This document shows positions 1-21,300 of a DNA stretch of 25,860 nt, in pieces (the stretch's first letter is position 1; every line of letters begins with the position of its first letter). The DNA comes from a virus (taxonomy: Duplodnaviria > Heunggongvirae > Uroviricota > Caudoviricetes), in IMG/VR virus record IMGVR_UViG_3300045988_049160; one strand, 5' to 3'. Position numbers and translations under genes: made by a program. The notes under the pieces were generated by a model. The model ran no database searches, was not told where the DNA came from, and saw only the letters and a list, made by a program, of their open reading frames with translations.

Positions 1-835
1 TAATTTTAAATAACTCTCCCTGGATAAAATCTTCAGAAGCATAAAAAAGAGGCTGGCCCGGTATTCTCTCAAATAAAAAACGAGCATTTTTAAATCGACT
101 GACATCCGGAAGAGTTGATACTTTAAAAGTAAGCCCTAATCCGTCAATTTTATAACCTGGAGATGAGGCTTCAAGGCACGCGCTTATTGCAGTGGAATCG
201 TCATTTATACCATCACCAACAGCTCCAAAATCTTTGGGGCTAATAGCATCACGCATTTTATCCTGGAACGTTCGGTACACAGCCCCAGAACCATACTGAA
301 TAAACCAACCAAAACCACCAACAACTCCGGCGATTGCAGCATCGACATAATTACGCATTGAGCGATTATTTACAGCGTCCTGCTCAAATGATGGATCTGC
401 AAGGTTAGAAATTTTGTTTTGCTTTGCATCGTAATATTTTGCAAGCAAAGATGGTTTCATCAATGCACGTCTGAACCACCCAAAACATTGCTGGATCAGC
501 ATCGTCAGGTAGTCAAAGGCATCTTCATGCACTTCGGGGAAAAATTTTCCCTGATTGCGAAGGTCTGTGTCCTGCACTACATCAAGCACACGATCTATCG
601 TAATTCGCCATCCAGTAGCAAGCGGAGACGGAAGAACCACAGAACCGCCACTATAAGTGCCCGCCCCAGTTACCGTATAACCGGTATCCAGGACCAATTC
701 TGTTACGTTTCCGTTCAGATCAGACACCTGAACAACCAGGTCTGATTTTCTGAAAATTCGAAAAGTATACGGAAACGATGTCGTAACGCCGTTACCGGTG
801 TATTCGTTGTGGTCAACTTCGGTTGAGACCGTCAT
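1..835 (-). CDS. Tailspike / tail fibre protein, N-terminal ~278 aa (partial; C-terminus lies beyond the window start). T7 gp17-like particle-binding N-domain followed by the start of a pectate-lyase-like beta-helix (putative depolymerase).
   Basis: Open frame on the minus strand from ATG at 835..833 to position 1 with no stop; not in the ORF track because it is truncated. GGAG Shine-Dalgarno 8 nt upstream. Translation begins MTVSTEVDHNEYTGNGVTTSFPYTFRIF..., resembling podovirus tail-fibre N-termini; the later motif DFGAVGDGINDDSTAI is typical of beta-helix tailspikes/depolymerases. Confidence 0.6.
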   Translation of the reverse strand, partial: MTVSTEVDHNEYTGNGVTTSFPYTFRIFRKSDLVVQVSDLNGNVTELVLDTGYTVTGAGTYSGGSVVLPSPLATGWRITIDRVLDVVQDTDLRNQGKFFPEVHEDAFDYLTMLIQQCFGWFRRALMKPSLLAKYYDAKQNKISNLADPSFEQDAVNNRSMRNYVDAAIAGVVGGFGWFIQYGSGAVYRTFQDKMRDAISPKDFGAVGDGINDDSTAISACLEASSPGYKIDGLGLTFKVSTLPDVSRFKNARFLFERIPGQPLFYASEDFIQGELFKI

Positions 836-938
836 GTTAAATCTCCAGATAGTCGCAGCACCCGTTGCGCCGCATATCTGGTTATTCTATTACCTGAAAA
901 ACCATATATGGATAAAAAGACTATAAATACCAATAGAT

Positions 939-955
939 ATTACCTTTCGGGTAAT
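939..955. promoter_or_regulatory. Putative operator, inverted repeat ATTACC-TTTCG-GGTAAT (copy 1 of 5)
   Basis: Perfect 6-bp inverted half-sites with a 5-bp spacer, in the divergent intergenic region between the tailspike start (835) and the small antirepressor-like gene (1031). Confidence 0.45.
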
Positions 956-991
956 TTGCAAAACGTGCTGGATAGCAAACAAATTATTTGT

Positions 992-1011
992 TACTGTATA
1001 AACATACAGTT
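992..1011. promoter_or_regulatory. LexA (SOS) box, TACTGTATAAACATACAGTT
   Basis: CTGT-N8-ACAG with AT-rich spacer, close to the E. coli LexA consensus TACTGTATATATATACAGTA; sits about 20 bp upstream of the RBS/ATG of the 1031..1288 gene. Confidence 0.6.
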
Positions 1012-1030
1012 ATTGCATGGAGAAGATAAG

Positions 1031-1288
1031 ATGCAGCAGTATCACTATCCACTGGAAGACGGATTTACCGAAAGGATTCACACGCCGGGAGGCGTCAGGT
1101 CACTGGTGGAGGGATCGCACTTGATGAAATTACTCCGGGATCTCGATAAGGATGGATTTAATGTCGATGGCCCACTTGCCGAACTGACTGCACTGATTAA
1201 CTACGTCACCAGCTCACAGATGTCTATGCAGGATCTGCAAACACATCTCGACTATTGTGCCGAACAATTACGAAAACAAACCCGGTAA
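1031..1288 (+). CDS. Small (85 aa) antirepressor-like protein, paralogous to the C-terminal domain of the Bro-N antirepressor at 2435..3127; putative SOS-inducible antirepressor
   Basis: Internal ATG at 1031 preceded by GGAGAAG RBS; the annotated 908 start would put the operator and LexA box inside the coding sequence. IHTPGGVRSLVEGSHLMKLLRDLDKDGFNVDGPLAELTALINYV...DLQTHLDYCAEQL aligns by eye with IHSPSGVLGLTENSLLMNLLNQLQDDGHDVSGAAAELTTMFCYI...DIQTHAEYINDK of the larger protein. Confidence 0.55.
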   Translation: MQQYHYPLEDGFTERIHTPGGVRSLVEGSHLMKLLRDLDKDGFNVDGPLAELTALINYVTSSQMSMQDLQTHLDYCAEQLRKQTR

Positions 1289-1294
1289 ATTTAA

Positions 1295-1312
1295 AGGCCG
1301 CAAGAGCGGCCT
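1295..1312. terminator. Hairpin AGGCCGC-AAGA-GCGGCCT between convergent genes, likely bidirectional terminator (stronger for the minus strand)
   Basis: 7-bp GC-rich stem; on the minus strand it is followed by TTTAAATTT; overlaps the stop codon of the 1311..2039 gene. Confidence 0.4.
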
Positions 1313-2039
1313 ATCGTTTCGCTTTGTGCTCGTCCCAGCACGTTTTGCACCATGCCATTAAGCCGTCCGCATTTTGATTATTAGGGTAAAAGCTGGTCCG
1401 TTTTCTGCGGACATTACAAATTGGGCACCACTTCATATGGCGTGTATTCTTTGGGCCATCGAGACACCTTGCACACCACTTAGTCAATCCATCTGGATTT
1501 TTTGACGATTTCCGGAATTTGTCATATGGAAGGTTTATTCTGCATCGCAAACACTGCTTGCGGCCACTTGAAACTCTGTTAGCTGATTCTTCTTTTGGCG
1601 GCGATACAGAAGGTATTCTTGCTGGCTCTGATACTGCCTGAGGTGCTTTTTTAGATGACTGAGACGATATGTCATCACCAGGGAATCTTCCATGATATGC
1701 CGGACGCGTTGACACTCCAGGTGGAAGCTCAGCTGTAAACGGCTTTGGCTGAATCAGTTGCCTCTCTTTTGCTAACTCCTGCTGTTTATAATATGTCTGG
1801 ATTACCGCACTATCATAAGCAGGAGGTGCGGAAATATTAGGCGCATTACCTCCAGTTTTTTGAAACTGAGTAGAGGTGTGTTCTATCACCTGTGTACGAT
1901 TAATCGTTATCTCCCCATCTTCGGTCTTTATCGTTTTGTTATGATTAACGACCGTACGATCAGAGATCTTAGTCTTGTTCTGGTTGATAACGTAAATAAT
2001 CACCGCAACCACACCAACAACTATCCAGAAAACTTCCAT
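1311..2039 (-). CDS. Membrane-anchored protein with N-terminal transmembrane helix, Pro-rich linker and two tandem C4 zinc-ribbon repeats; function unknown
   Basis: 242-aa ORF; N-terminus MEVFWIVVGVVAVIIYVI is hydrophobic; C-terminus has two Cys-x2-Cys pairs repeated twice (CLRC...NPDGLTKWCARC and CPIC...NADGLMAWCKTC). GAGGAAAA RBS upstream of the ATG at 2039. Confidence 0.5.
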   Translation of the reverse strand: MEVFWIVVGVVAVIIYVINQNKTKISDRTVVNHNKTIKTEDGEITINRTQVIEHTSTQFQKTGGNAPNISAPPAYDSAVIQTYYKQQELAKERQLIQPKPFTAELPPGVSTRPAYHGRFPGDDISSQSSKKAPQAVSEPARIPSVSPPKEESANRVSSGRKQCLRCRINLPYDKFRKSSKNPDGLTKWCARCLDGPKNTRHMKWCPICNVRRKRTSFYPNNQNADGLMAWCKTCWDEHKAKR

Positions 2040-2058
2040 TGCTTTTCCTCACAATAAC

Positions 2059-2075
2059 ATTACCTTAAAGGTAAT
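2059..2075. promoter_or_regulatory. Putative operator ATTACC-TTAAA-GGTAAT (copy 2), perfect 17-bp inverted repeat
   Basis: Immediately upstream of the RBS of the minus-strand zinc-ribbon gene (ATG at 2039). Confidence 0.45.
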
Positions 2076-2152
2076 ATCTTGCTTTCAGGTGATCAAGCGT
2101 TAAACGCAATCAACCAAATACGGTTGATTTTAATATTTCTTCGCGTTTATCA

Positions 2153-2169
2153 TTACCTTTGCGGTAAAT
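2153..2169. promoter_or_regulatory. Putative operator ATTACC-TTTGC-GGTAAA (copy 3)
   Basis: Directly downstream of a -35/-10-like pair (TTGATT 2124-2129, 17-bp spacer), in the leader upstream of the antirepressor gene. Confidence 0.4.
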
Positions 2170-2434
2170 TTACATCGCACTCCTCTTGTGCCATAGTAAT
2201 CGGGCACTGGCAAAATCCAGTGCCGGGATTGGTCTCCCGGATTACTACAGAGGCACATATGCCGCATAAGCGGTTTTTTTATGTGTAAAGCGCACCTATT
2301 CTATGGTGGGCTGTGTGGGGGCACCGAAAGGTGCGCCGGGTTCCTTTGTAGCCGGTAAGACCAACTCTGCACAGTTCACCACCATCTGATTGGTCTCAGC
2401 GGTGGTGATTAACCTAACTACAAAGGTGATCGCT

Positions 2435-3127
2435 ATGAATACCAAACCTTCCATCTTTTCCTTTGAGTCATCCTGCCAGATCCGTATGTTCATGATTGAC
2501 GGAGAACCTTGGTTTGTCACCAAAGATGTGTGCAATGCTTTGAATATTGATGTTACACAAGCGAGAAAACTTGATAAAAAAGGCTGGAACAAAAAGGGGC
2601 TGTATTCAATACAGACCCCTGGTGGAATACAAGAACTATCCATCGTTTCAGAATCAGGTCTCTACATCCTTATTCTGCGTTGCAAAGAGGCAATGACTGA
2701 GGGAACGAGAGCATTCAGATTTCTTGAATGGGTTACAGGTGAGGTTCTTCCTCAGATCCGCCGCACCGGAAGTTACATTAAAAACTCGCTCCCGCAGGAA
2801 GAACGCATAAAGATGGTTGCCGACCAGGTAGCCAACGCCACGGCGTCAGCAGTAATGCAGGCAATGAAGATAGAGAACAAAACCTACAGTGCCCCGCTGA
2901 AGCCCGGCTACCGCAGCCTGATTCATTCGCCGTCTGGTGTTCTCGGCCTGACGGAGAACTCACTGCTGATGAATCTGCTGAACCAGTTACAGGACGACGG
3001 GCACGACGTATCGGGCGCGGCGGCGGAGCTGACCACCATGTTCTGCTACATCGTCGGTGTGAGCAAATGCCTGCGTGATATCCAGACCCACGCGGAGTAT
3101 ATCAACGACAAAGCAGGGTTCTTCTGA
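2435..3127 (+). CDS. Phage antirepressor-like protein with Bro-N N-terminal domain
   Basis: ATG at 2435 with AGGTGA RBS; N-terminal region FESSCQIRMFMIDGEPWFVTKDVCNALNI...GGIQELSIVSESGLYILILRCKEA matches the remembered Bro-N/antirepressor pattern; C-terminal domain duplicated in the 1031..1288 protein. Confidence 0.6.
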   Translation: MNTKPSIFSFESSCQIRMFMIDGEPWFVTKDVCNALNIDVTQARKLDKKGWNKKGLYSIQTPGGIQELSIVSESGLYILILRCKEAMTEGTRAFRFLEWVTGEVLPQIRRTGSYIKNSLPQEERIKMVADQVANATASAVMQAMKIENKTYSAPLKPGYRSLIHSPSGVLGLTENSLLMNLLNQLQDDGHDVSGAAAELTTMFCYIVGVSKCLRDIQTHAEYINDKAGFF

Positions 3128-3211
3128 CGAGCGGCGGCACATGGATGTGCCTACAATTATCAATAATTGTTTACACTCGTTGCAGTTAAAAGCATTATAC
3201 TCATGTTTAAA

Positions 3212-3228
3212 ATTACCCGATTGGTAAA
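3212..3228. promoter_or_regulatory. Putative operator ATTACC-CGATT-GGTAAA (copy 4)
   Basis: Lies between a TTTACA -35-like hexamer (3170-3175) and the RBS/ATG of the 3249 gene. Confidence 0.4.
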
Positions 3229-3248
3229 GTCGATTGGTTGAGGTTCAT

Positions 3249-3575
3249 ATGAGCAGAAGATATGTCAAGGAGCTGGCTATAGAGTCTGGCACCCCTTTGG
3301 GTATCGTTCCTGGCTCCAACTATGCCAAGGCTTTAAACCGAGACTCTGTCGTCAAAGTTATATCAAGAGACATGAATATGGTCGGAGACGATCTCAGACG
3401 GTCAGAAAATCGTGTTTATGCTGAATATATAGTAAAGAACGGAAAAAAAATTGCAGCGCCTGCTGGCGGAAAATGGGCAATAGTGACAGGGAAAAACTCA
3501 AATGCAAGAGGAAAACCAGAAGCTAAAGGAATGTCCTTCGACAAATATGCAAAAATCTATTGGGCAACCAAGTGA
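3249..3575 (+). CDS. Hypothetical protein (108 aa), first gene of a small operator-controlled operon
   Basis: ATG at 3249 with GAGG RBS 5 nt upstream (the track start at 3234 is a TTG). No recognisable motif. Confidence 0.45.
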   Translation: MSRRYVKELAIESGTPLGIVPGSNYAKALNRDSVVKVISRDMNMVGDDLRRSENRVYAEYIVKNGKKIAAPAGGKWAIVTGKNSNARGKPEAKGMSFDKYAKIYWATK

Positions 3576-4050
3576 TAACGAAGAAACTGAGTTCGAGGAA
3601 GTTGAGGAAGGGCTAAGTAACGAGATCATTCAACACCCAGATGCCTTCACAAGAGTTCTTGATCGCCCTGAAATTCAGGAGATAGTTGTCGCTCACCATG
3701 CGTTTCAGGGTCCGCTTCCTCCCCCCTATCTGCTTCGCGGGTATCAGGATATTTTACCTGATGCCCCCGAACGCATCTTCCAGCTGACGGAGAAGGAGTT
3801 TGCTCACCGCCAGAAAATGGAGGAAAAGGCACTTGACGGGGCTATTAATAGAGATAAACGTGGGCAGTGGTTTGGCCTGAGTGCAACTATTTTTACAGTA
3901 GCTTGTGCAACATTATTAGGTTTAACAGGTCATGAAGTTCTAGCTGGCACAGTGATCGGTACAGTTGTTGCAGTGGCTGGTATTTTCGTTCTTAGACAAA
4001 AACCAAGCATCAAGAAGAAATCTGAAGACAACAAACCTGAAGAAAAGTAA
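3502..4050 (+). CDS. Membrane protein, DUF2335-like (two C-terminal transmembrane helices); start uncertain (3502 or 3547)
   Basis: ORF overlaps the preceding gene in another frame; motif GPLPPPYLLRGYQDILPDAPERIF...EKEFAHRQKMEEKALDGAINRDKRGQWFGL followed by hydrophobic segments fits remembered DUF2335 phage membrane proteins. Confidence 0.45.
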   Translation: MQEENQKLKECPSTNMQKSIGQPSDNEETEFEEVEEGLSNEIIQHPDAFTRVLDRPEIQEIVVAHHAFQGPLPPPYLLRGYQDILPDAPERIFQLTEKEFAHRQKMEEKALDGAINRDKRGQWFGLSATIFTVACATLLGLTGHEVLAGTVIGTVVAVAGIFVLRQKPSIKKKSEDNKPEEK

Positions 4051-4071
4051 GCCCGCGCTGCGGGCTTTTTT
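4049..4071 (+). terminator. Rho-independent terminator (GCCCGC-GCT-GCGGGC followed by TTTTTT)
   Basis: GC-rich stem immediately after the stop codon at 4048-4050, followed by a T6 run. Confidence 0.6.
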
Positions 4072-4143
4072 GTGGACGAAACAAAAGTCAGTGCTACACT
4101 CATTGACGCCACATTGAGGTGGCTTATAGATGGAAATGTCACA

Positions 4144-4305
4144 ATGAAAAAAGCATTTGCTGCACTGTTCGTTTTGTTGTCTCTGGTAGCTTCAACTCAG
4201 GCCTTTGCCGGTCGTTGTCAGCACGACAGCGATACTGCCGCTGACGGCTCCCGCTGCGGTGGGCGTTCTGCGGATTCCCGCCCGGGCGGCGGTGGCATTC
4301 GTTAA
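4144..4305 (+). CDS. Small secreted peptide (53-aa precursor; predicted signal peptide MKKAFAALFVLLSLVASTQAFA; about 31-aa mature peptide with two Cys and Gly/Arg-rich tail)
   Basis: Internal ATG at 4144 of the 4072..4305 ORF; promoter-like TTGACG-17-ATAGAT upstream; own terminator downstream. Confidence 0.4.
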   Translation: MKKAFAALFVLLSLVASTQAFAGRCQHDSDTAADGSRCGGRSADSRPGGGGIR

Positions 4306-4327
4306 AAACAAGGCCGCGAAAGCGGCC
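4306..4327 (-). terminator. Rho-independent terminator ending the minus-strand late operon (hairpin GGCCGC-GAAA-GCGGCC, T-run on minus strand)
   Basis: Perfect 6-bp stem with GAAA loop at 4312-4327; the minus strand then reads TTGTTTTTAAC. Confidence 0.6.
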
Positions 4328-4328
4328 T

Positions 4329-4340
4329 GTGACATGTCAC
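4329..4340. repeat. 12-bp perfect palindrome GTGACATGTCAC (copy 1 of 4), overlapping the lipoprotein stop codon and adjacent to the terminator
   Basis: Exact sequence; identical copies at 21728-21739, 22120-22131 and 24386-24397. Confidence 0.8.
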
Positions 4341-4717
4341 GCAACGCAATTATTACCGCGCCATGTAACATTTTTAATAATCTTATCAGCACCAAACTCA
4401 ACGTAAACAGAGCAACTGAAATGGAGTGTATAACCGCCATCAGTTGTTGCGTATGTGTTTGAATATATAGTATTACCAATTAGATTAGACGTAGTATTAT
4501 ACGTTGTGGTTTGTGGTACGTTATAACTACCAGAGCTTGAGTAAACATACACTCTGTTTCCATCTGGAGATGTAAGCTCTCCCTGAGGATACCCCCACTG
4601 CTGAACCATTGCGTCTATACTCTGCCCGCGCCACGTAAGCATATTTCTTTCAAACTGTGCAGCTGACTGGCATCCAACGAGAAGCATAAATCCAAAAATC
4701 AAAAATACTTTTCTCAT
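4337..4717 (-). CDS. Lipoprotein (lipobox LLVGC), Thr/Ser/Tyr-rich mature domain; function unknown (candidate exclusion or lysis-associated lipoprotein)
   Basis: Internal ATG at 4717 gives MRKVFLIFGFMLLVGCQSA..., a classic signal peptide plus lipobox Cys; last gene before the operon terminator. Confidence 0.55.
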   Translation of the reverse strand: MRKVFLIFGFMLLVGCQSAAQFERNMLTWRGQSIDAMVQQWGYPQGELTSPDGNRVYVYSSSGSYNVPQTTTYNTTSNLIGNTIYSNTYATTDGGYTLHFSCSVYVEFGADKIIKNVTWRGNNCVA

Positions 4718-4802
4718 AATTACCCCTATCATGGAAAAACAGCACCAATCCACAAATTAACTAGTTATTTTATTATTCTTCCGAACAATACAATTCCGAA
4801 TA

Positions 4803-4925
4803 CTACAAAGCCGAACCATGCCGCTGCACGCAACAGAGATTCCAATTGAAACCCATTTTTATCAAAATGTATGAATAGCATAAAAACGCTGCACATATTA
4901 GTACAATAAAAGTTATTTGAACCAT
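4803..4925 (-). CDS. Small hydrophobic peptide (about 40 aa, one predicted transmembrane helix); alternative to the 62-aa ORF called in another frame
   Basis: ATG at 4925 (and 4928) is preceded by AAAAGGAG; translation MVQITFIVLICAAFLCYSYILIKMGFNWNLCCVQRHGSAL. The track ORF 4765..4953 has no RBS for any of its Met codons. Confidence 0.3.
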   Translation of the reverse strand: MVQITFIVLICAAFLCYSYILIKMGFNWNLCCVQRHGSAL

Positions 4926-4936
4926 CATATCTCCTT

Positions 4937-7411
4937 TTATTGCGGAGTGACATCCTGTGGTCGCCACCAGTATGTCTGGTTAAACTCTTTCTTCGAACGT
5001 TGCTCCATTTTACGCAAATAGCCTGGTGAAAAATACTCCTGCATCTGGTTAAAGATCATGTGATCGAGAGCCGCCTTCAAGTACCAGAGATTCGCACCAG
5101 GCATCAAACCTTTCCCCAGCTTCACCAGATCACCACCAGTCTGCTCACTCTTCCCTTCCACAGCATTTAACGGTATGCCCTGAGCAATCTTCACTACGTC
5201 ATCAACCAGACCAGCTACCGGGCCAAGCATCGACGCCAGCGCGCCGCTTCCGTACCTAGTGTGATCTGACAATAAAAAGTCACCGTAAAGGCCAAGACCA
5301 CCACCTTTCAGTAGAGCACCAAGCCAGAATTTTGCGGCATCTTCTCCTGTCATCTCTCGAGGATTACGACCAGACGCAAGGTCGTTAAGTTGCTGCGACA
5401 AAGCGCCAAGAATGGTCGTACTGGCAATAAACGTCGCAATATATGCCGCACGCCCACCAGCAGACGGCATACCCATAGCGCGTGACCAGTGACGCATAAC
5501 AACCGAGATAGGGAACGATTTAAACAGGAAAACACTTCTCGTTAATTCACCTTTCCATGTTCCACGCTGAATACCAGAACCGGTTATCAGTTGCTCACGT
5601 GCTCCCGGTGTAATAACAGCCATATCAACTTCTTCAGTTACGGCACCGAGCAGTTTACGCATTGCCTCAAATTTCACGCGTTCAGGCTCACCAAGATGTT
5701 TAACTGCTGAATCAGGGATACGCATAATGCTTTCCGGTGTCAGCATCGTATTATTACCGTTCCCCCAGTCCTCCTGTTTCGCCAGCTTCCATACGCTCCA
5801 GTCTGTGTCAGTAATCCCTTTGCTTTTCAGGATACGAAAATCAGAGTCATCGAGGCTACGAAGGTCTGGTGTCCGTGACACTACTTCTCCCAGGCTTCCC
5901 ATCATGGTTACGCCATAGGCGCGCTTGTGCGCATCTGACCATGCTGTAAGCCCACTGGCACGCATTACCGCCGTTGCCGCCCAACGAGACACTGACGGCC
6001 CCATATTATCCATCGCCCAGCGGTTAACGCTGCCAAGTAGAGATTCCATCGCCAGACCAGCGCGGCGCGCCCGCGCAAGTTCTGTACGGTTCGTTGGGTC
6101 CATAGCTTCAAGCTGGTTGCGGAATAACTGGTTCATTGGAAGGTTGGTAACCTTCGCAGACAGATACATGGTTCCAAGATCAGAGAACGATGACAGCAAC
6201 GCGGATCCGAGTCTGCTGGCAACCAGCCAGTTGCGGATATTGTCAGACCATCGCGCGATGTGCGGATTCGCTACAGGCTGTGTCTTTCCGGAAATAAAGT
6301 TGTACAGATTCTCTGTGTTGTTCGCCAGCCGCTCGACTTTACCGGTTTTACTCGGGTTAGCTGTTGCCGTTTCTGCCTTCACCTGATCAAGAAGAGAGCG
6401 GAAAACATGATCGGGGTTTGGGCCATATGTTTCCACCAGTGCAATATCTTTACTGATACCTTCCAGGTGACCGACCATGATTTCCCATAGAGAGCGATCG
6501 CCATAAAGTTGCTGATATTGCAGATAGGAATCTGCATCTTTGAAATGTATCTGTCGTGATGCATTACCACGGTTAGCACGTGCGCCGGAAATTCGCATTC
6601 CGGTATCAGTAAGCTTATTCAGCCCACCAGTAGCGATCGTGTTATAAGCCTCTCCAAGAAATGAAGACAACTCGGCATCGTTCATCAGTTGTCCATCGGC
6701 TCGGATATAATATTTGCGATCCAGCTTACCTATAACATCGCTAACCCACTTATCCTTTGATACTGCCCCAACCTTTTCCATAGAATGATGTTGAGGGATC
6801 CCCCAGTTTTCGAGATAGCCAATGTCCCCACCAGCATCATTAAACCGGCGGCGCAGCAGCTCTGTAACTTCTCTCCACGCCTTAGCACCGTTTCTTGCTT
6901 TAGCATTGCCAGTATTTTGCCCCCGCATTTCATATACCAGGTCACGTACGCCCGCTTCATCTTCAAACAGACCAAAAAAGCGAGGATCAACTGCTTCGAA
7001 TGCCTCCTGCAATTGACTCAATGCATAATCACGGGTGGCTTTTGTTCTGGATTCAACAGAGAGGAAATTAGATTTACCGTCTGCATTAAAAGCTATAGTA
7101 CGGTTAAGAGCGCCAAGTTTCCCATCAGCCCCTTGATAGCTATTGATAAATTTATCCAATCTCTGACGCGCGGCTATAGTGAGAGCCACACGACGTTTCT
7201 TTAATGCCGCTTCTCGCTGTAATTCTTCAGATGCCAATTGTGCTGCTCGATATAGCCGCTCTGATTCGGAAAGTTGTCGCCACGACATAGGGTCATCACG
7301 AGCAATGGAGCGCATATTTCGATAAATGCGGTCTTCAATGTTCTGTATTTCTCGCGCCGTTAACATGCGCTGCGCCGCCTGCTGAACCGCTTGTATACAT
7401 TCCTGTCTCAT
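4937..7411 (-). CDS. Internal virion / DNA-ejection protein, C-terminal region resembling T7 gp16 (internal virion protein D)
   Basis: 824-aa ORF, translationally coupled to the upstream gene; C-terminal segment VFLFKSFPISVVMRHW...ALSQQLNDL...GPVAGLVDDV resembles the remembered T7 gp16 C-terminus (VMQFKSFTIKSLNSKF...). Confidence 0.5.
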   Translation of the reverse strand: MRQECIQAVQQAAQRMLTAREIQNIEDRIYRNMRSIARDDPMSWRQLSESERLYRAAQLASEELQREAALKKRRVALTIAARQRLDKFINSYQGADGKLGALNRTIAFNADGKSNFLSVESRTKATRDYALSQLQEAFEAVDPRFFGLFEDEAGVRDLVYEMRGQNTGNAKARNGAKAWREVTELLRRRFNDAGGDIGYLENWGIPQHHSMEKVGAVSKDKWVSDVIGKLDRKYYIRADGQLMNDAELSSFLGEAYNTIATGGLNKLTDTGMRISGARANRGNASRQIHFKDADSYLQYQQLYGDRSLWEIMVGHLEGISKDIALVETYGPNPDHVFRSLLDQVKAETATANPSKTGKVERLANNTENLYNFISGKTQPVANPHIARWSDNIRNWLVASRLGSALLSSFSDLGTMYLSAKVTNLPMNQLFRNQLEAMDPTNRTELARARRAGLAMESLLGSVNRWAMDNMGPSVSRWAATAVMRASGLTAWSDAHKRAYGVTMMGSLGEVVSRTPDLRSLDDSDFRILKSKGITDTDWSVWKLAKQEDWGNGNNTMLTPESIMRIPDSAVKHLGEPERVKFEAMRKLLGAVTEEVDMAVITPGAREQLITGSGIQRGTWKGELTRSVFLFKSFPISVVMRHWSRAMGMPSAGGRAAYIATFIASTTILGALSQQLNDLASGRNPREMTGEDAAKFWLGALLKGGGLGLYGDFLLSDHTRYGSGALASMLGPVAGLVDDVVKIAQGIPLNAVEGKSEQTGGDLVKLGKGLMPGANLWYLKAALDHMIFNQMQEYFSPGYLRKMEQRSKKEFNQTYWWRPQDVTPQ

Positions 7412-7416
7412 TTAAT

Positions 7417-9219
7417 TTAACCTCTCAAGAAACACGCCACAGCGACATCAAACAGGCTGGAATCCTGTATTGCCTGCTCACTTTCCCTGTTCGCTTCATC
7501 CAGTGCTTCACGCGCACTGCGCGATTGTGGATTACCATCATCATCCAGCACGGTGATTATCATGTCCGGAGATTCAAGCAGCGAGTCTTCAGCTATACGC
7601 AGATCAATATCTCCTGCCGGATCTGCCATCATTTTTTGTTCTGTCTGTTGCAATATCTTACCGGGCTCAAAAGGAGCTACTTCGTCTGGCGTCCTGACCT
7701 CTGCTGTTTTATAGAATGAAACAGCCTGAGTATTAAGTTCACTTTCAGCCTGCTGTCTCCGTGCCAGTTCTGCTCGAGCTTCAAAAAACTGACCGCCAGG
7801 CTCATGCGGTGCCAACGCGTTACGAGAAAATTCCAGGCGTTCTTGTGCCTGCCGGATTCGTTGGTCAATATCGCGAAGTCTGGCCTGTTTATCTGATCGA
7901 GCACGAGATAAAGCCTTACCGCTACCGGCTGGATCTTCTGCAAGAATTTGTGCGCGCTGTTCAGTGAGATTTTCAATAATTCGTTGGCTATTAGCGATTT
8001 CAGACTGGTAAACCTGTCTATCGCCACGCGGCAAAAGCTGCGCGGCCTGTTCTTCAAGCAACCGATTTTCTATAGCGCGCGCCGTTACTCCATCATCTAC
8101 AGATGACAGAGCCTCATTAACTGCCTGAGACAGCAGACTCTTGCGTCCAGGAATTTCACTGAAAGATGCAGACTCAACAATGCTGGCAACGTCTACAGGT
8201 CTCCCCTGGCTAACATCAGACATGGCTTTTCGCAGAGCCTGAATGTGCGAATTACGCGAAAGCACGTTGATCGGCACGCCGGGAGCAATATCAATTTCAG
8301 CATGATGAGCGGCATTCGCCGCCAGTGCAGCATCGATATCAACTGGTGAAAAATTTGGTGCGCTTGTAGACTCGCCGCGAGAGTTAATAAATCTGCCGAC
8401 ACCACCAAACGCCACCCCAAGAACAGCATCAATAGCAATTGCCTGTCGATCCAACACATCATACTGGTTAGCCATTTCGCTATAGCCACCATCACGAAGC
8501 GTTTTTGCAGTAAGCCCACGCTGTGCCATACCGAACGCAATATTTGTACCTGCGGCATAGGCAATATCTGGCGTTGCACGTACTGCTGTTGCTGCGGCGC
8601 GTCGCACTGAACTTTCACCCGTCCGCGCAAGCTGAGCCGCCACACCTTCCGCCAGCGCACCACCAGCACGTAACCCGAGGCTCATAGGGATCAGTGTTCC
8701 GGCACCAGCAGTAATACCCTGCACTAATCCCGCTTCCTGCGCCGTCCTGAAATCAACACCCTGTGCTGTCAGCCGTTCAAACTCAGAAAAACCCTGTAGA
8801 GAAGTTACCGCCGCAGCACCTCCGACCGGACCACCGAGCGTTGTACCGACAACAGCCTGCCCGCCCATATCGAACAACCCATAAAGAACCTGCCCGGCGG
8901 TTCCGGTTGTCGCGGCATCAGGCGTCAGCCGCTTAACCTGCTGTTCTGCTAGTTTTCTCTGCTCGGCAATGTATGAAACTGAAGTATCATTGAGCGAGGT
9001 GTTTTCGTTAATAAACTGAGCAATCGGGGATACGATTTTATCCATCCCTGCCCATAGCAACTGATCTGGCTTTGCCACCAGCCCGGAGTACAAACCAGAC
9101 AATGCCGCTCCTACAGCATTGTCGAAAAAACCAACATCGCTGTTAAAGCCCGCTGGATTTGATGCTGCTTCGTCAAGCTGCTGATTCTGGTTTACTGGAT
9201 TAAGGCCAAAGTAACTCAT
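7417..9219 (-). CDS. Internal virion / ejection protein (Gly/Ala-rich, 600 aa)
   Basis: ATG overlaps the upstream stop (ATGA); position between the gp14-like and gp16-like genes; Gly/Ala-rich composition. Confidence 0.4.
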   Translation of the reverse strand: MSYFGLNPVNQNQQLDEAASNPAGFNSDVGFFDNAVGAALSGLYSGLVAKPDQLLWAGMDKIVSPIAQFINENTSLNDTSVSYIAEQRKLAEQQVKRLTPDAATTGTAGQVLYGLFDMGGQAVVGTTLGGPVGGAAAVTSLQGFSEFERLTAQGVDFRTAQEAGLVQGITAGAGTLIPMSLGLRAGGALAEGVAAQLARTGESSVRRAAATAVRATPDIAYAAGTNIAFGMAQRGLTAKTLRDGGYSEMANQYDVLDRQAIAIDAVLGVAFGGVGRFINSRGESTSAPNFSPVDIDAALAANAAHHAEIDIAPGVPINVLSRNSHIQALRKAMSDVSQGRPVDVASIVESASFSEIPGRKSLLSQAVNEALSSVDDGVTARAIENRLLEEQAAQLLPRGDRQVYQSEIANSQRIIENLTEQRAQILAEDPAGSGKALSRARSDKQARLRDIDQRIRQAQERLEFSRNALAPHEPGGQFFEARAELARRQQAESELNTQAVSFYKTAEVRTPDEVAPFEPGKILQQTEQKMMADPAGDIDLRIAEDSLLESPDMIITVLDDDGNPQSRSAREALDEANRESEQAIQDSSLFDVAVACFLRG

Positions 9220-11729
9220 TGCGGAATATCTCCGGAGAATCTCTGACGCTTCTGTGTCAGATCAAGAACAACGGGAGAACCATCATCTTTTAGCAGATAA
9301 CCAGTACCAAGTTTCACCAGGTACTGACTATCGCCGTAACTTTGCAAACCATACTGACCAGGCGGTGTTTTTATCCCTGTGCCAACAACTTGTTCATTCC
9401 AAGCCTGATTAACCTGCTTATCGAATTGCTCTGCAGACATTCCCCACGGCAAAAGAACATTCCCCATTCCGTTATAGTCATGCACGCCACCTGTAGCTAC
9501 GTTAACAGCCTGTTTCCAGATATCATTGTCAATTTCGCCTGATACCACGCCTTTTTTCGCCATCACACCAGCGTAATAGTCCTTTGCGATCTCGTATGCC
9601 ATTGATGCCCCCTGAGCATCACCAGCAAATGCATCCTTAACCATGTCAGAAAACTCAAGGCGGAGATCAGCATCTTTAGGCATCGGAATACCTTTCGCGT
9701 CATCAGTACCTTTACGAGCCGCCGCGCCAGCAAGAATTGTCTGCGCAGCGGTTTCAGGAGACACGGAAACATCCGGATTAAACCAGTTTTTTTCTGCCAA
9801 AATACCACCTGGCTTATCCATCAGTATCCCGGCAACGGCAGCAGATGGAGCGTTGGCACTGATCTGCTGTAGTGCTGACATATACACCTGCCCACCACCA
9901 GTGCTCTGCCTGATGGTATCGAGATATGCTGCCTGTTGGGAAACGGGCGCATCACGAAAGAAAACACCGATCTGATTGGCCTCGTCTTTGGAAAAGAACG
10001 TCAGTGGAGTGCCATATGACTTAGCAAGGTCACTGACCTGAGCAGCACGCAAGGCAACGCTCTGTCCAAAGTTATCCTTATTGCTCATGTCGATAGGCTT
10101 TGTCTGTCCTGCGGCAAGAGAGAACTGTACAGGATCAGCCTGTCGCTGCTTTATCACCTGACTTGCAGCCGACACAACGTTGTCATAAAGAGCGGCTCGT
10201 GCCGCATAACCCTCCCCTGTCTCACCAGTATCCGGGCGTAATTGCTCAACATATGCTGTAATGCTGCTTGTCGGCATGTTGCGGAAAGAGCCTATATACT
10301 GTCCGGCGATTTGCGTATTTCTGAACTCGGTATATCGCAGGTTTCCTTCTCTTACTCCATAAGCTGCAATAAAATCAGCCTCACCAGGTGGGTTAGGAAA
10401 TTCAACGCCACGCATATACGCAGCTGTCGCATCGCGAACCTGGCTGTCAATCATCGTTTTATATTCAGCCTGCTGCTGCCGACGCAGTTGATCCGCCTGT
10501 CGCATAAAACTTGCCTGCGCCTCAGGAGATGCCGCATCGAATGCTGCATTACCGGTATAGCGTTTGGTGTTGGTTGGAATTGTTGATAAACCAAGTGCTG
10601 CACTGACACCAGCAGTTAACTGCTGATCACTGTATGGCTGGCTACCGTTCTCATGATGGATAATGGCTGCACAAAGCGCCTTCAGGGTATCAGGATTAGA
10701 TGCATCGAGAGGCTCATCAGCAGAAACGCCAAGTTGTTCGCACACTGCTTTGATATACGACATAGTGTCATTTTTATCAGCAGGCGGTGCCCAGCGATTA
10801 ATTATCTCGCTGACGGTATCAATACCCTGCCTCTGATACGACATCAGGTTCCGCCCTAATGCACGAATCCCGTGTTCAGGTGTTTCGAATTTAGCAAATC
10901 GACCATCATCACCGGTCTGGCCTACCCACGGATTAGTTTTGCTGTATTCGAGATTTCCTGGGTTATTGTTGCGTATGCCACGGGCACGCTCGGAAGAGTC
11001 ACTATCTGCTACAGCACGGCGAGCTCCAGCAGCAGTATCACTTAACTCGCCATTACTTTGGATGAATGCGGTCGCATTGTTTGCCGACCACTGGGACAAT
11101 GCAGCATCAGCAACCTTCTCTTTAAACTCGATTTTCTTGGCCTGGATTTGCTCGTTGCTCCAGCCATGTGCAACACCGTACTCCTCAATTTGCTGGAAAG
11201 TTTGTTTGTTAGCCAATACGTATGCGGCGTTGTCGCCATACAATACTGCGGCATTTTTACCATTGTTCAGCAGTGTCGCCTGAAACTGGCCTTCTTCGTA
11301 GGCATTAATTTGCCCTATCTCGTGTCGCCCGGCCTGCGTAGTGAACTGAATGCGCTGCTGCTGCGCCTGCTGCATGAAAGCATTACGAGCCTGTTCATCC
11401 GGCAGCGACATAGCCAGTTGTTCGACCTGAGCATCAAACTGCTGCGTATACTCATGGCCTTTTCCAATAGCATTTTTCCCTTTCAGGTTAAGCAATCCTG
11501 TTTCAGGATTATTCAGCAGATCGCTGCTTATCTGACTGAGGTTAAGAGATGCCTCCTGAGCCAGAGCAATATTGGCACGCTGTTTTGCCTGCCCCAAAAC
11601 ATCAATTGCCTCTGTCCCTGCCCGAACAAAAGCATCACCAATACCTTGCTGAGAAAACGTCTGCAAGCCTGCTGACTGAACTCCACGACTCTCAACCTGA
11701 CGTCCGGATACTGTTGGTACGACTGGCAT
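9216..11729 (-). CDS. Internal virion protein (about 837 aa) with central conserved domain containing the motif RNNNPGNLEY...RWAPP (possible enzymatic, perhaps cell-wall-active, domain)
   Basis: Start re-assigned to ATG at 11729 (Met26 of the track ORF), which overlaps the upstream TAA by one base and has a GGAGGA RBS; the track start would overlap the upstream gene by 75 nt. Confidence 0.5.
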   Translation of the reverse strand: MPVVPTVSGRQVESRGVQSAGLQTFSQQGIGDAFVRAGTEAIDVLGQAKQRANIALAQEASLNLSQISSDLLNNPETGLLNLKGKNAIGKGHEYTQQFDAQVEQLAMSLPDEQARNAFMQQAQQQRIQFTTQAGRHEIGQINAYEEGQFQATLLNNGKNAAVLYGDNAAYVLANKQTFQQIEEYGVAHGWSNEQIQAKKIEFKEKVADAALSQWSANNATAFIQSNGELSDTAAGARRAVADSDSSERARGIRNNNPGNLEYSKTNPWVGQTGDDGRFAKFETPEHGIRALGRNLMSYQRQGIDTVSEIINRWAPPADKNDTMSYIKAVCEQLGVSADEPLDASNPDTLKALCAAIIHHENGSQPYSDQQLTAGVSAALGLSTIPTNTKRYTGNAAFDAASPEAQASFMRQADQLRRQQQAEYKTMIDSQVRDATAAYMRGVEFPNPPGEADFIAAYGVREGNLRYTEFRNTQIAGQYIGSFRNMPTSSITAYVEQLRPDTGETGEGYAARAALYDNVVSAASQVIKQRQADPVQFSLAAGQTKPIDMSNKDNFGQSVALRAAQVSDLAKSYGTPLTFFSKDEANQIGVFFRDAPVSQQAAYLDTIRQSTGGGQVYMSALQQISANAPSAAVAGILMDKPGGILAEKNWFNPDVSVSPETAAQTILAGAAARKGTDDAKGIPMPKDADLRLEFSDMVKDAFAGDAQGASMAYEIAKDYYAGVMAKKGVVSGEIDNDIWKQAVNVATGGVHDYNGMGNVLLPWGMSAEQFDKQVNQAWNEQVVGTGIKTPPGQYGLQSYGDSQYLVKLGTGYLLKDDGSPVVLDLTQKRQRFSGDIPQ

Positions 11730-12274
11730 TATAATCCTCCGGGTAATCTGGTTCCTGCTGCTGCCCCGATTGGCGCAGGAGTGCTTTGAGTAAACGGACT
11801 CCACGTCCCACCAAACATCTGGTACGCACCGTATGCCTTCAGAGGCGCAGTGAGCAATGTTGTTGCTGCTCCCACATTCCCCTGTTTACGGGCTGAACTG
11901 GCTTCTGCTTTATAGTTGGCAGCCTGAACCTGATAACCGTAAGCCTCGCGTTGCGCGTTATTCACCGTCGTCAGCGAATCAAGAGCGCCAAACTGGGCAG
12001 TGTCGCCAAATATATCCAGCGCGTTACCTGTAGATAAATCAGCGCCGGTAGCCCCCATTGTCGCCGCCTGTGTACCAAGCCGCTGTCGGGTCTCTCTGCG
12101 TCGTTGCTCAGCTTCAGCGTTACCTCTGTTTATTGCATCATTTGCCTGAGCTGTGGCTATATCTGCGTTCGCTTCTGCAACCTTCGAGGCATACTTTCCC
12201 TGTTGGTACTGGGTGTATGCCTGAATGCCACTCATGGCGAGCATTGCGCCACCAGCAATAACCGGATCGCACAT
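11729..12274 (-). CDS. Internal virion protein, T7 gp14-like (internal virion protein B)
   Basis: 181 aa, starts MCDPVIAGGAMLAMSGIQAY... and is Ala/Gln-rich like remembered T7 gp14 (MCWAAAIPIAISGAQAISGQ...); conserved position after the tail tubular genes. Confidence 0.45.
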   Translation of the reverse strand: MCDPVIAGGAMLAMSGIQAYTQYQQGKYASKVAEANADIATAQANDAINRGNAEAEQRRRETRQRLGTQAATMGATGADLSTGNALDIFGDTAQFGALDSLTTVNNAQREAYGYQVQAANYKAEASSARKQGNVGAATTLLTAPLKAYGAYQMFGGTWSPFTQSTPAPIGAAAGTRLPGGL

Positions 12275-12738
12275 TATTTTCTCTCCATGTGAAATCTGTG
12301 GAAATTAAGACCAAGAGCACCATAAGGCGCGGCTTCTTCAAGCCTGAATCCAAGCCAGTGCAGCCATGCTTTGGCAACATGGTTTCGCTCGTCGACATAG
12401 TTTTCCAGGCGCGGATAAACTGCCAGCATCTGCTGCAATACAGGGCGGCAGTGGCGAAGAAATGTCTTCTGATATTTTTCGATACGGCTGGTTCCGACCA
12501 GCCAGGGCGTACCATTGCCACCGATCATTGACGCCGGAGATACGCCAAACATGGTTACCAGTTCTCCGTTCGCGAACCCTGACCAGGCCATAGTCGCAGT
12601 ACGCAGACCAACACGCAGCGCATCTTTGGTAGTCATCAGCGATACCGCATACAGTTCGTCAATATCAGCCTGACGAACATCCGGCAAAATCATCTGAAGA
12701 TGCTCTTCGGTAGCGGGAATAATTTGAACATCGATCAT
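12274..12738 (-). CDS. Small virion-associated protein in the gp13 position (internal virion protein A-like), 154 aa
   Basis: Translationally coupled on both sides; call by gene order only. Confidence 0.3.
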   Translation of the reverse strand: MIDVQIIPATEEHLQMILPDVRQADIDELYAVSLMTTKDALRVGLRTATMAWSGFANGELVTMFGVSPASMIGGNGTPWLVGTSRIEKYQKTFLRHCRPVLQQMLAVYPRLENYVDERNHVAKAWLHWLGFRLEEAAPYGALGLNFHRFHMERK

Positions 12739-16216: not shown

Positions 16217-16654
16217 TTAACCAGTTACTTTTGAGCGGATCGGGTACGGCGTATTGGCATCAACATCCAGACTGATACCCGCAGTGAATTTGCCAGCCGT
16301 TAGTGGGCCAGTTGCGACGGAGTAGTTAACACGCAGATATCGCTGAACACCGGCAGGCACCTTTGCAGAAACAACTCGTTTACCTGCTGTCAGGGCGGTC
16401 TTTGCCAGTGCGCCACTATCATAAATAGTGGTCCATGAGCTGTTATTCTCACTCGTCTGCAACTGGATGTTTACAGTTGCATCACCGCTTGCCGCGGCGG
16501 CTGCGTTAACCAGCGCCCAAAACTCAAGCGGGTAACCCACGCCGATATCACGACGTTTTCCGTCAATTGGACCGAGATCGATTACGTCAGTAGAAGCCGC
16601 GGTATTCGTAACCGCCTGAGCTTCGGAGAACATCAACAGTTTGTCGGTGATCAT
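16217..16654 (-). CDS. Putative capsid decoration / minor capsid protein (145 aa)
   Basis: Immediately downstream of the major capsid gene; Ala/Thr/Gly-rich; call is positional only. Confidence 0.3.
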   Translation of the reverse strand: MITDKLLMFSEAQAVTNTAASTDVIDLGPIDGKRRDIGVGYPLEFWALVNAAAAASGDATVNIQLQTSENNSSWTTIYDSGALAKTALTAGKRVVSAKVPAGVQRYLRVNYSVATGPLTAGKFTAGISLDVDANTPYPIRSKVTG

Positions 16655-18408: not shown

Positions 18409-18701
18409 TCCTGTTCACTGGCCTCTTTGGCCATCTTCAAATACTGTTCAGGGCAATGCGCCATAACGCGCTGAAACAGTTCCAGCGCCAGATTGCGTTG
18501 CCCCTCATTAAATGCCATTGCCATAGCGTCCATCGGTGAGATAGCGGAAAACACACGGCCTTTCTCCAGCACCGACCAGACAACGCGACGCCCCTGTTCA
18601 CTGCTCATGACAAAGCAAATGTCATCAATTTCACGCTGTGCCATGTCACGTTGCTTACGGGCGTTTTCTTCTTTCAGTTGATCGTCTTCGTAATCTGTCA
18701 T
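18405..18701 (-). CDS. Hypothetical head-assembly-associated protein (98 aa)
   Basis: Translationally coupled between portal and scaffold. Confidence 0.4.
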   Translation of the reverse strand: MTDYEDDQLKEENARKQRDMAQREIDDICFVMSSEQGRRVVWSVLEKGRVFSAISPMDAMAMAFNEGQRNLALELFQRVMAHCPEQYLKMAKEASEQE

Positions 18702-20377
18702 TGTGATTGCCCACCCTGACCACTAACTGCATTCGCCATAGCTGACAAAACACTCGGATCCGAAGTTTTAGCTTCGCTTAGCGTCTTGGCACCCTGTGCC
18801 GCCGCCATCCCCATCGCCATCATTTGTTGCTGCTGTTGTTGCTGTGCCCGTTGCTGGCGAGCCTGCTCAACCTGTTCCTGCGGAACAATGACGGTTGGAG
18901 ACACTCCGGACATATCAGCGAATGCATCGATCGCCTGATCAACGTTGAGTTTGTCGAGAGCTTCTGGTTTCGCTTGCGCAAGTTGACCAATGAAGTTGAC
19001 CGTAGACGCCAGACTGGACAGGCCGATAGACTTCTGCGCCTGAGCCATGACGGAAATGTATTCGACCTTCAGGGGCATACCTTCCATCGCGTCAGGCGGT
19101 GGCGGCAGCATGTTTTTACGCACCATCATCGAGAAAGCGCGGTCAATGAGAGGATTAAGACATTCGTCGTTCAGACGCTCCAGAACCGGCCCCAACATCA
19201 GAAGTTTTTCTTCTTTCATTTCGATCACCGCTTCAACAGGCATCGAGCGGGTATTGATGTTCTGCAACATCATGAACAGATCGACAAAGTAGGCGCTGTT
19301 AATGATTTGACGGGTGTCCTGAATGTCTGCCACCAAATCTGCTGTACTGGGGTTAACCAGATAAGCAGGCCTGAAACCATCCTGACCAGTAATCTGATCG
19401 ATATACGTGATGTCGCCAGGAAGAAGGGAGGCACGCTGATTCTTGAGGGAAGTCGGAGCAACCATCGGCGGATTGGTGGCTTTATCAATCAACTGCGACT
19501 TGCGCTTCTGGAGAAGCTGCAATGCCTTAACAGGTCCAAGCGCCAGCATACCCGGGCATGATGATCCATAAACATCTTCGCCGTTAACTTCCCAGCGCGG
19601 AGCCATAATTGGAAACTCATCGAATCCGGACTCACGCAACAACTTGTCGTTATCGCCACCAACCTCGTAATAAACCGATTTGAATGGCTTGTTCTTGCTA
19701 TCCAGCTTCGATGTATCGCGGTCAATGTTCGGGTAAACCGAATGCATCACTTCAATCCACTTCTCGTAGGTTCCGCTTTCCCACATGCTTTTTACGGATT
19801 CGCTGACGTTATTTAGCCCGAACTCCTGAACAAGCTGACGAACAGTCATAGAGAACTTGCGAAAACAGGTGTCCACACTGCCACGAGGTGAGTTAGCCAG
19901 GTAGTAACTGCCTATCGGGAATGGCATTGTGCGAATGATGTCCTCGTCATCCTCCAGCACTGCCATTGCACCAGTGCTGTATGTGCCGAGGCTTCCGTAT
20001 AACTGCGGCAGCGACTGATAGAGATTCGACTTATTGAACATATCGTTCATGCGGTTCTGCACCGCCTCAAGCCACAACTTAACAGGGCCATAATCCATCA
20101 TTTCAGGATCTGGCGTAGCCAGGCGAAACCACGGACGCGCGGGGCTTGTGATGCCTGACATCATGCCGCTGGCGAGAGTGCGCGCCGCCATAGTCCCGGT
20201 CGAATCAATAATGCGTGTATTGCGTCGATCGTTACGGTTGACCTCAGAAGTCAGAAAGCGGGAACCACGCGGGTTGATGTAATCACTCAACTCGCGCCAG
20301 TGCGGCTCGAACGACTGACGCTCGCTTTCAAGTTGTGCGAACTGTTTGTTCAATCGCTCTTTAGTTGTTTCCGCCAT
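18698..20377 (-). CDS. Portal (head-to-tail connector) protein, T7 gp8-like
   Basis: 559 aa; N-terminal region LNKQFAQLESERQSFEPHWRELSDYINP...TGTMAARTLASGMMSGITSPARPWFRL parallels remembered T7 gp8 (YERLKNDRAPYETRAQNCAQY...VGARGLNNLASKLMLALFPMQTWMRL); Gln-rich C-terminus QQRAQQQQQQQMMAMGMAAAQG also gp8-like. Confidence 0.75.
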   Translation of the reverse strand: MAETTKERLNKQFAQLESERQSFEPHWRELSDYINPRGSRFLTSEVNRNDRRNTRIIDSTGTMAARTLASGMMSGITSPARPWFRLATPDPEMMDYGPVKLWLEAVQNRMNDMFNKSNLYQSLPQLYGSLGTYSTGAMAVLEDDEDIIRTMPFPIGSYYLANSPRGSVDTCFRKFSMTVRQLVQEFGLNNVSESVKSMWESGTYEKWIEVMHSVYPNIDRDTSKLDSKNKPFKSVYYEVGGDNDKLLRESGFDEFPIMAPRWEVNGEDVYGSSCPGMLALGPVKALQLLQKRKSQLIDKATNPPMVAPTSLKNQRASLLPGDITYIDQITGQDGFRPAYLVNPSTADLVADIQDTRQIINSAYFVDLFMMLQNINTRSMPVEAVIEMKEEKLLMLGPVLERLNDECLNPLIDRAFSMMVRKNMLPPPPDAMEGMPLKVEYISVMAQAQKSIGLSSLASTVNFIGQLAQAKPEALDKLNVDQAIDAFADMSGVSPTVIVPQEQVEQARQQRAQQQQQQQMMAMGMAAAQGAKTLSEAKTSDPSVLSAMANAVSGQGGQSQ

Positions 20378-21025: not shown

Positions 21026-21102
21026 GTGGCATTAGCTCAGCTGGACAGAGCAACCGCTTTCTAAGCGGTTGGTCGCAGGTTCGAATCCTGCATGCCACGC
21101 CA
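21026..21102 (+). tRNA. tRNA-Arg (anticodon UCU)
   Basis: 77 nt with CCA; acceptor stem GTGGCAT/ATGCCAC, D-arm GCTC/GAGC, anticodon stem CCGC/GCGG with loop TTTCTAA, T-arm GCAGG-TTCGAAT-CCTGC. Related to but not identical with remembered E. coli argU. Confidence 0.85.
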
Positions 21103-21146: not shown

Positions 21147-21188
21147 GCGGTGATGGTTTCCCTTGAAGGACTATCACCGCCCTTTTTA
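21147..21188 (+). terminator. Rho-independent terminator downstream of the tRNA
   Basis: GGCGGTGAT...ATCACCGCC 9-bp stem followed by CTTTTTAC. Confidence 0.55.
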
Positions 21189-21265
21189 CAGCATGACGCC
21201 ATTGCGATGGCTTCATGCTGTAAACCAGTACAGCCACGGAAGGCATAACTCATTGCTTCCAGTTC

Positions 21266-21290
21266 GCCCGATTCGCCGGGCATTTTTTTT
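21266..21290 (+). terminator. Terminator-like hairpin plus T8 immediately 5' of gene A (GCCCG-ATTCGC-CGGGC-A-TTTTTTTT)
   Basis: GC stem and T8 run ending 10 nt before the ATG at 21301; the same cassette is duplicated before gene B. Confidence 0.4.
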
Positions 21291-21300
21291 AGGTGAGATC

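Follow-up and report, generated by a model that had tools for sequence, protein, structure and literature searches.

An Enc34-type lysozyme-like domain at the center of the gp15-position structural protein of a phiV10-like podovirus

What does a compact, globular domain do in the middle of a podovirus structural protein, and to which family does it belong? The question is raised by a gene at positions 9216..11729 (minus strand, stop codon included) of IMG/VR virus record IMGVR_UViG_3300045988_049160, a stretch of 25,860 nucleotides that we call the window throughout. The window is a phiV10-like Uetakevirus, i.e., a podovirus of the phiV10/epsilon15 type, and the gene encodes an 837-amino-acid (837-aa) structural protein orthologous to PhiV10p18 and epsilon15 gp15. 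A first-pass annotation, made from the sequence without database searches, had described an internal virion protein with a central segment that might be a cell wall-degrading module of some family other than the classic lytic transglycosylases, and it could not say which. We find that the central domain, of ~135 aa, is an Enc34-type (PHA02564) lysozyme-like glycosidase with all the defining features of the family that could be tested, and below we ask what such a domain is likely to do in this protein.

The domain spans aa 249-385 (10575..10985, minus strand), or aa 250-378 as delimited in the full-length structural model. A sequence search of the PDB returned two specific relatives for aa 249-398, 9VVP chain L and the Enc34 endolysin 7Q47. 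The first, a protein named “Gp29” (1295 aa, with four chains in the entry), matches through its residues 3-146 at an E value of 5.5e-38, and the second matches query residues 249-367 with a phmmer E value of 2.9e-17; a 56-sequence profile gave E values of 4.5e-41 and 6.2e-29, respectively. We found no paper for the “Gp29” of 9VVP, which from its length, four chains, and N-terminal domain position would be the gp16-type core protein of a Kayfunavirus-like phage. In the NCBI Conserved Domain Database (CDD), PHA02564 is the family of the Enc34 ORF39 catalytic domain, which is muralytic when purified and has an all-helical fold like the lysozyme alpha-lobe, with a core permuted relative to GH73 and GH23 enzymes (PMC8943055). 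The central domain of the 837-aa protein has the same kind of fold: it is all-helical, resembles the lysozyme alpha-lobe, and can be superimposed on 7Q47. A second member of the family, the M4Lys domain, degrades purified peptidoglycan, and mass spectrometry pointed to a glycosidase (glucosaminidase), possibly with an additional endopeptidase activity (PMC7143992).

Scans against Pfam and NCBIfam matched no family, either with the whole protein or with the isolated domain, and none of the 120 homologs listed carries any Pfam domain. The two collections hold no model for this family, which is why the first-pass annotation could not place the domain and why automated pipelines keep missing it. 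The suspicion that the domain is not a classic lytic transglycosylase was borne out. Pfam SLT (PF01464), the model with the E-S, GLMQ, and AYNAG-type motifs of classic SLT/GH23 enzymes, matched neither the protein nor the isolated domain, even at E values of ≤10, and hhalign of the central domain against the SLT modules of sister proteins (see below) gave a probability of 0.3%.

The family occurs in several architectures. Among the homologs from the metagenome protein search (e.g., P0103, P0108, and P0120), many are stand-alone proteins of ~140 aa that consist of the domain and nothing else, and those of a second class, at ~220 aa, have a hydrophobic tail at the C terminus, as Enc34 ORF39 and M4Lys do. 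Some of these homologs are named “structural protein P5” by NCBI, which is the legacy label of the phiV10 protein. One 1,337-aa homolog (P0388) has two copies of the domain, at aa 86-203 and 698-814, and an 869-aa homolog (P0296) has it at the C terminus (733-865) instead of in the center. 

Are the residues needed for catalysis still there? The segment highlighted by the first-pass annotation, SSERARGIRNNNPGN...RWAPP, is found letter for letter at aa 245-316 (10782..10997, minus strand), and the RGIRNNNPGN family motif at the start of the domain occupies aa 250-259 (10953..10982, minus strand). In Enc34, the catalytically important residues are Glu131, Trp79, and Tyr95, with Glu131 as the catalytic Glu (PMC8943055). 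Alignment to 7Q47, with a constant +1 offset between the SEQRES index and the published numbering, places their equivalents at E360 in HHENG (codon 10650..10652), W313 in RWAPP (10791..10793), and Y325 (10755..10757), all on the minus strand. Across an alignment of 45 diverse homologs (A1), E360 and Y325 are invariant, and W313 and RGIRNNNPGN are at least 90% conserved. A second set was restricted to large virion-type relatives and comprised 70 domains. All 70 have E360 and 63 have Y325, and position 313 is aromatic in 69 (58 W, 8 Y, and 3 F). Within the motif, R253, N254, N256, P257, G258, and N259 are kept in 66 to 69 of the 70 domains (69 for N256, P257, and G258), R250 in 56, G251 in 64, and N255 in 63, and position 252 varies among I, L, and V. 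Judged by these alignments, the catalytic Glu/Trp/Tyr signature is intact in the 837-aa protein.

The motif region matches 832 phage records and more than 500 homologs in a metagenome protein search, an occurrence far beyond chance; the whole protein has 12,696 representatives at E values of ≤1e-3 in an exhaustive HMMER search. The first-pass annotation had said that it should be abandoned if domain searches gave no enzymatic fold and homologs did not keep the motif. An enzymatic fold was found and the motif is kept, and, on homology, fold, and catalytic signature, the suggestion of a cell wall-degrading module from a different family is supported.

The central domain is one of five regions in a full-length structural model of the protein, which has a predicted local distance difference test (pLDDT) score of 89.2. 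The N terminus (aa 1-41) is predicted to be disordered and leads into a long-helix domain at aa 37-226 (11052..11621, minus strand), which is followed by a flexible linker with a pLDDT of <50 (aa 234-244; 10998..11030, minus strand). Beyond the enzymatic domain lies a mostly helical C-terminal scaffold with small beta elements near its end (aa 395-825; 9255..10547, minus strand), and no other part of the protein is as widely conserved. The compact, globular character that had been ascribed to the central region is reproduced by AlphaFold (pLDDT, 91.1; predicted template modeling score, 0.84), with long-helix regions on both sides. No signal peptide, transmembrane segment, or hydrophobic segment is predicted anywhere in the 837 residues. 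The protein is matched over its full length by phrog_992, shares 59% identity over its full length with epsilon15 gp15, and is 99.6% identical to PhiV10p18, which is annotated as a [quoted passage not shown]

The linker is also the site at which many prophage and SPN1S-type orthologs carry an insertion of ~100 aa. Most Escherichia coli prophage orthologs are 935 aa long, and in the 935-aa variant P0131 the insertion falls between query aa 242 and 249 (window ~10985-11003); Salmonella phage SPN1S and Escherichia phage PAS61 are among the other carriers. The insert of the 935-aa variant has no Pfam match above threshold and no PDB match, and it matches phrog_19413 alone. The module occurs as well, at 55 to 61% identity, in ejection-type proteins of unrelated podoviruses, including Klebsiella, Citrobacter, Proteus, Aeromonas, and Rhizobium phages, where the annotations read “IVP-C-like protein” or “DNA transfer protein.” This insertion seems to be a mobile accessory module.

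What occupies the central position in other versions of this protein? We surveyed the module in the 148 best of the 12,696 representatives and confirmed it with local hidden Markov models. Among the 121 of these that are at least 600 aa long, the central module is of the Enc34 type in 59, SLT (PF01464) in 29, and GH108 (PF05838) in 16, with nothing detectable in the remaining 17. Sister scaffolds with SLT or GH108 (e.g., Ralstonia phage RpY1_044, P0249, and P0285) share gene order with the 837-aa protein and are homologous to it in the C-terminal scaffold; for P0249, P0252, and P0288 the homology extends to the N-terminal domain. The enzymatic module of the sister proteins lies at the same position, ~aa 220-400. 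In P0249, for example, N-terminal domain, SLT, and C-terminal scaffold at 52-234, 233-336, and 374-822 correspond to 51-233, the domain, and 394-837 of the query. The cassettes themselves, however, belong to different families with no profile-level similarity, and profile-profile comparisons among the Enc34-type, SLT, and GH108 cassettes found no homology (hhalign probability, <1%). Gene order is kept in Ralstonia phage RpY1, which has the GH108 variant, and in Pseudomonas phage YA3, which has no detectable enzymatic domain in the slot. The central slot is an exchangeable muralytic cassette. The exchange itself is observed directly, and these relatives give the strongest argument about function: the slot is most simply understood as muralytic because three different peptidoglycan-cleaving families fill it in orthologous structural proteins.

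One could go further and speculate that epsilon15/BPP-1-like podoviruses use their gp15-position scaffold to swap three unrelated murein-cleaving chemistries, namely, that of a probable glucosaminidase of the Enc34 type, that of the SLT lytic transglycosylase, and that of the GH108 muramidase, with the choice tracking the peptidoglycan chemistry of the host. Speculatively, a glucosaminidase would be insensitive to O-acetylation of N-acetylmuramic acid (MurNAc), which blocks transglycosylases and muramidases. If this were true, Uetakevirus virions would gain a mechanistically distinct way of passing the wall, perhaps combining glycosidase and endopeptidase activities as has been suggested for M4Lys. 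We regard this proposal as unlikely, and both the adaptive interpretation and the chemistry are speculative.

The gene that carries the domain is real, as had been claimed, and it was found on the minus strand. Translation of both strands shows that the minus strand is open across 9216..11729; a plus-strand reading of the same interval was rejected, with many stops. The start codon is the ATG at 11727-11729, with GGAGG upstream. This ATG overlaps the stop codon of the upstream gene (TAATG), and at the other end the TGA of the 837-aa gene shares bases with the downstream start codon (ATGA); these overlaps indicate that the three genes are translationally coupled. A longer open reading frame (ORF) with a GTG start, reaching to 11804 (862 aa), was dropped in favor of the ATG at 11729, which has the GGAGG, the TAATG overlap, and the agreement of the phiV10 and epsilon15 annotations.

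The surrounding genes place the protein in a block of the T7 type. At the TAATG junction lies a gp14-like internal virion protein of 181 aa (11729..12274, minus strand), with a match to T7_gp14 (PF24072; E value of 2.5e-7) and to phrog_418, “internal virion protein.” Upstream of it is a gp13-like protein of 154 aa (12274..12738, minus strand) that matches phrog_308, also “internal virion protein,” and weakly matches T7 Gp13 (PF11090) at an E value of 0.087, below the curated cutoff. The 837-aa gene follows directly after these two and precedes the tail fibre/spike gene, and the order of the three is common to phiV10, epsilon15, Ralstonia phage RpY1, and Pseudomonas phage YA3. The gp15 position proposed in the first-pass annotation is therefore correct by synteny. 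Comparison of the carrier protein with T7 gp15 and gp16 showed no sequence or structural similarity. Downstream, the ATGA overlap leads into a 600-aa protein (7417..9219, minus strand; phrog_1145; phiV10p19), the ortholog of epsilon15 gp16, and then comes an 824-aa virion structural protein (4937..7411, minus strand; phrog_684, “virion structural protein”; phiV10p20), the ortholog of epsilon15 gp17. Neither downstream protein has a sequence relative in the PDB. An observation of its own concerns the gp13-like protein: its epsilon15 ortholog is annotated by HHpred as a GNAT-family acetyltransferase and its counterpart in Pseudomonas phage YA3 is named “putative acetyltransferase,” and an acetyltransferase fold in an internal-virion-protein slot (12274-12738, minus strand) is curious.

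Taken with the family assignment, this context leads us to propose, with a probability of about 80%, that the 837-aa protein carries a peptidoglycan hydrolase module, associated with the virion, which breaches the wall when the genome is delivered. Virion presence, ejection, and enzymatic activity are what we infer for this protein, with delivery on infection drawn from synteny and from literature on related phages. Virions would carry the 837-aa protein, either packaged inside or attached, along with the gp14-like, 600-aa, and 824-aa products of the translationally coupled operon to which its gene belongs. Once the O-antigen has been processed by the tailspike, the operon proteins would exit the particle and form a trans-envelope DNA conduit, and the central domain would cut peptidoglycan glycan strands locally so that the conduit can pass. 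Glu360 would act as the general acid, Tyr325 and Trp313 would position the sugar, and the RGIRNNNPGN loop would line the groove. To judge from the characterized members of the family, the bond cut would most likely be that between N-acetylglucosamine (GlcNAc) and MurNAc, GlcNAc-(1,4)-MurNAc, as expected of a GH73-like N-acetylglucosaminidase.

Several points weigh against this proposal. Guichard et al. are said to have placed epsilon15 gp15 in the central tail tube in 2013, and the 837-aa protein may belong to the tail hub instead of the internal core. As to which bond the family cuts, the M4Lys mass spectrometry data suggested glucosaminidase plus endopeptidase activity. A review assigns the internal core of epsilon15 to gp17 alone (PMC5850374). 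In T7, furthermore, the gp16 transglycosylase is needed only with highly cross-linked peptidoglycan (PMC8954989), and the central domain may likewise be conditionally dispensable.

How well do other explanations fare? Many members of the family are annotated or have been shown to be endolysins (Enc34 ORF39, M4Lys, Siskin, and Pseudomonas phages), and the PHROG families that match the protein (1044, 873, and 10475) carry the label “endolysin,” which would fit a lysis enzyme of the kind that serves Enc34, Chi-like, and D3112-like phages, one that works from inside the cell when infection ends. However, phiV10 has its own holin/GH19-type endolysin/Rz/Rz1 cassette elsewhere in the genome, and epsilon15 likewise has a GH19 endolysin (PMC12391199); because of this separate cassette, the domain most likely serves entry and not lysis. 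[quoted passage not shown] A role in lysis thus seems extremely improbable. The domain could instead be a catalytically inactive relic that persists only to bind peptidoglycan or to play a structural part in the ejection/tail complex. The scaffold can evidently work with an empty slot, as in the 17 of 121 long relatives without a detectable enzyme (e.g., Pseudomonas phage YA3), and the analogous enzymatic activity of T7 is dispensable under standard conditions (PMC8954989). Yet the catalytic Glu is found in 70 of 70 domains, and the Tyr, the Trp or other aromatic residue, and NNNPGN are strongly conserved in virion-protein relatives down to an overall identity of ~25 to 30%, which is the pattern expected from purifying selection on catalysis. 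Where the domain has been replaced, moreover, the replacements are other catalytic peptidoglycan-cleaving families, not binding domains. We consider an inactive relic very unlikely.

A different doubt concerns the reaction itself. Rather than a hydrolytic N-acetylglucosaminidase, the domain might be a lytic transglycosylase that leaves 1,6-anhydro-MurNAc ends. Such chemistry could be accommodated by the one conserved catalytic Glu, T7 gp16 and the SLT variants of the same scaffold are transglycosylases, and the Enc34 structure is distantly similar to GH23 enzymes (phiKZ gp144 and MltC) as well as to GH73 (PMC8943055). The support that is particular to this protein is a remote HHpred note, “putative lytic transglycosylase; HHpred 4anr_A SltB,” in the annotation of epsilon15 gp15, and the closest outside relatives of the family are GH73 glucosaminidases, which makes a transglycosylase improbable and leaves a peptidoglycan hydrolase acting at entry as our preferred explanation.

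Part of this was already public: the protein sequence (2005), the muralytic annotations in epsilon15 and AF/Ab31, the structure and activity of the family (2020 to 2022), and its presence in internal virion proteins. We add three things: the Uetakevirus gp15-position protein is placed precisely in a family and its catalytic residues are named; a three-way exchange of Enc34-type, SLT, and GH108 cassettes in one scaffold is quantified; and Pfam and NCBIfam are seen to have still no model for a very large family. The assignment corrects the labels “head protein” and “capsid and scaffold” and refines “lytic transglycosylase.” The gain for annotation extends to phiV10-like phages and thousands of E. 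coli and Salmonella prophages, in which the protein is called “hypothetical structural protein,” “head protein,” or “capsid and scaffold”; beyond annotation, it matters little. The three-way exchange neatly illustrates a mosaicism that had been described before in ejection proteins, and the cassette series allows murein-cleaving chemistries to be compared in DNA delivery. Virion-associated lysins of the Enc34 type are also of some interest for application, as enzybiotics for use against Gram-negative bacteria.

Elsewhere in the window, a tRNA-Arg gene (anticodon TCT; 21026-21102, plus strand) lies opposite in strand to the structural operon. It falls in the interval from the portal (18698-20377, minus strand) to the large terminase (22207-23682, minus strand) gene and adjoins an ORF of 186 aa (21163-21723, plus strand) without a Pfam match. 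The gene after the major capsid gene encodes a 145-aa protein (16217-16654, minus strand) that matches Bbp16 (PF21190) at an E value of 3.5e-47, which ties the phage head to the BPP-1/epsilon15 capsid lineage. Downstream of the 824-aa gene, positions 1-4900 form a mosaic accessory region that is not fully common to phiV10 and is best matched by Escherichia phage EC.W1-9 (98.9% over 65%). It includes a Bro-N antirepressor-like gene (2390-3127, plus strand), a DUF2335 membrane protein (3502-4050, plus strand), and a 242-aa protein (1311-2039, minus strand) with an N-terminal hydrophobic segment, C-terminal CxxC repeats, and a weak Stc1-domain match (E value of 3.5e-4, below the cutoff).

Among the closest known systems is epsilon15, whose gp15 (AAO06078.1) is an ortholog with a domain ~90% identical to ours and an identical synteny of gp13-gp14-gp15-gp16-gp17; its C-terminal ~300 aa diverge from the 837-aa protein (~40% identity). 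The “putative lytic transglycosylase” label of epsilon15 gp15 rests on a remote HHpred match, and the Enc34-type assignment is more precise. An SLT domain in epsilon15 gp15, which had been a guess from that label and the divergent C terminus, was ruled out: the protein contains the same Enc34-type domain and has no Pfam SLT match. The counterpart in phage Ab31/AF is annotated as “structural lysozyme.” Enc34 ORF39 (7Q47) and M4Lys of Salmonella phage BSPM4 are lysis-cassette enzymes of ~200 to 250 aa with a C-terminal two-helix membrane domain, whereas here the domain is internal to an 837-aa structural protein without transmembrane segments, in a phage with a separate GH19 endolysin.

The Kayfunavirus phages, K1F-like relatives of T7, have the same domain (49 to 56% identity; E value of 5.5e-38) in their internal virion protein D/gp16 homologs, annotated as “internal virion protein with endolysin domain.” Their carriers (e.g., Citrobacter phage SH4 gp39 and 9VVP chain L) belong to the podovirus internal-virion/ejection gene block, as does the 837-aa protein. 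In Kayfunavirus, however, the domain is at the extreme N terminus of a gp16-position protein of ~1,300 aa, the place of SLT in T7, whereas here it is central in a gp15-position protein, and the two proteins do not match outside the shared domain. T7 gp16, with its N-terminal SLT domain in the ejectosome (PDB 7K5C/6YT5), likewise has a peptidoglycan-cleaving module on an ejection protein encoded after gp14, and this module presumably makes an opening in the murein for the trans-envelope channel, letting the ejectosome pass highly cross-linked murein (PMC8954989).

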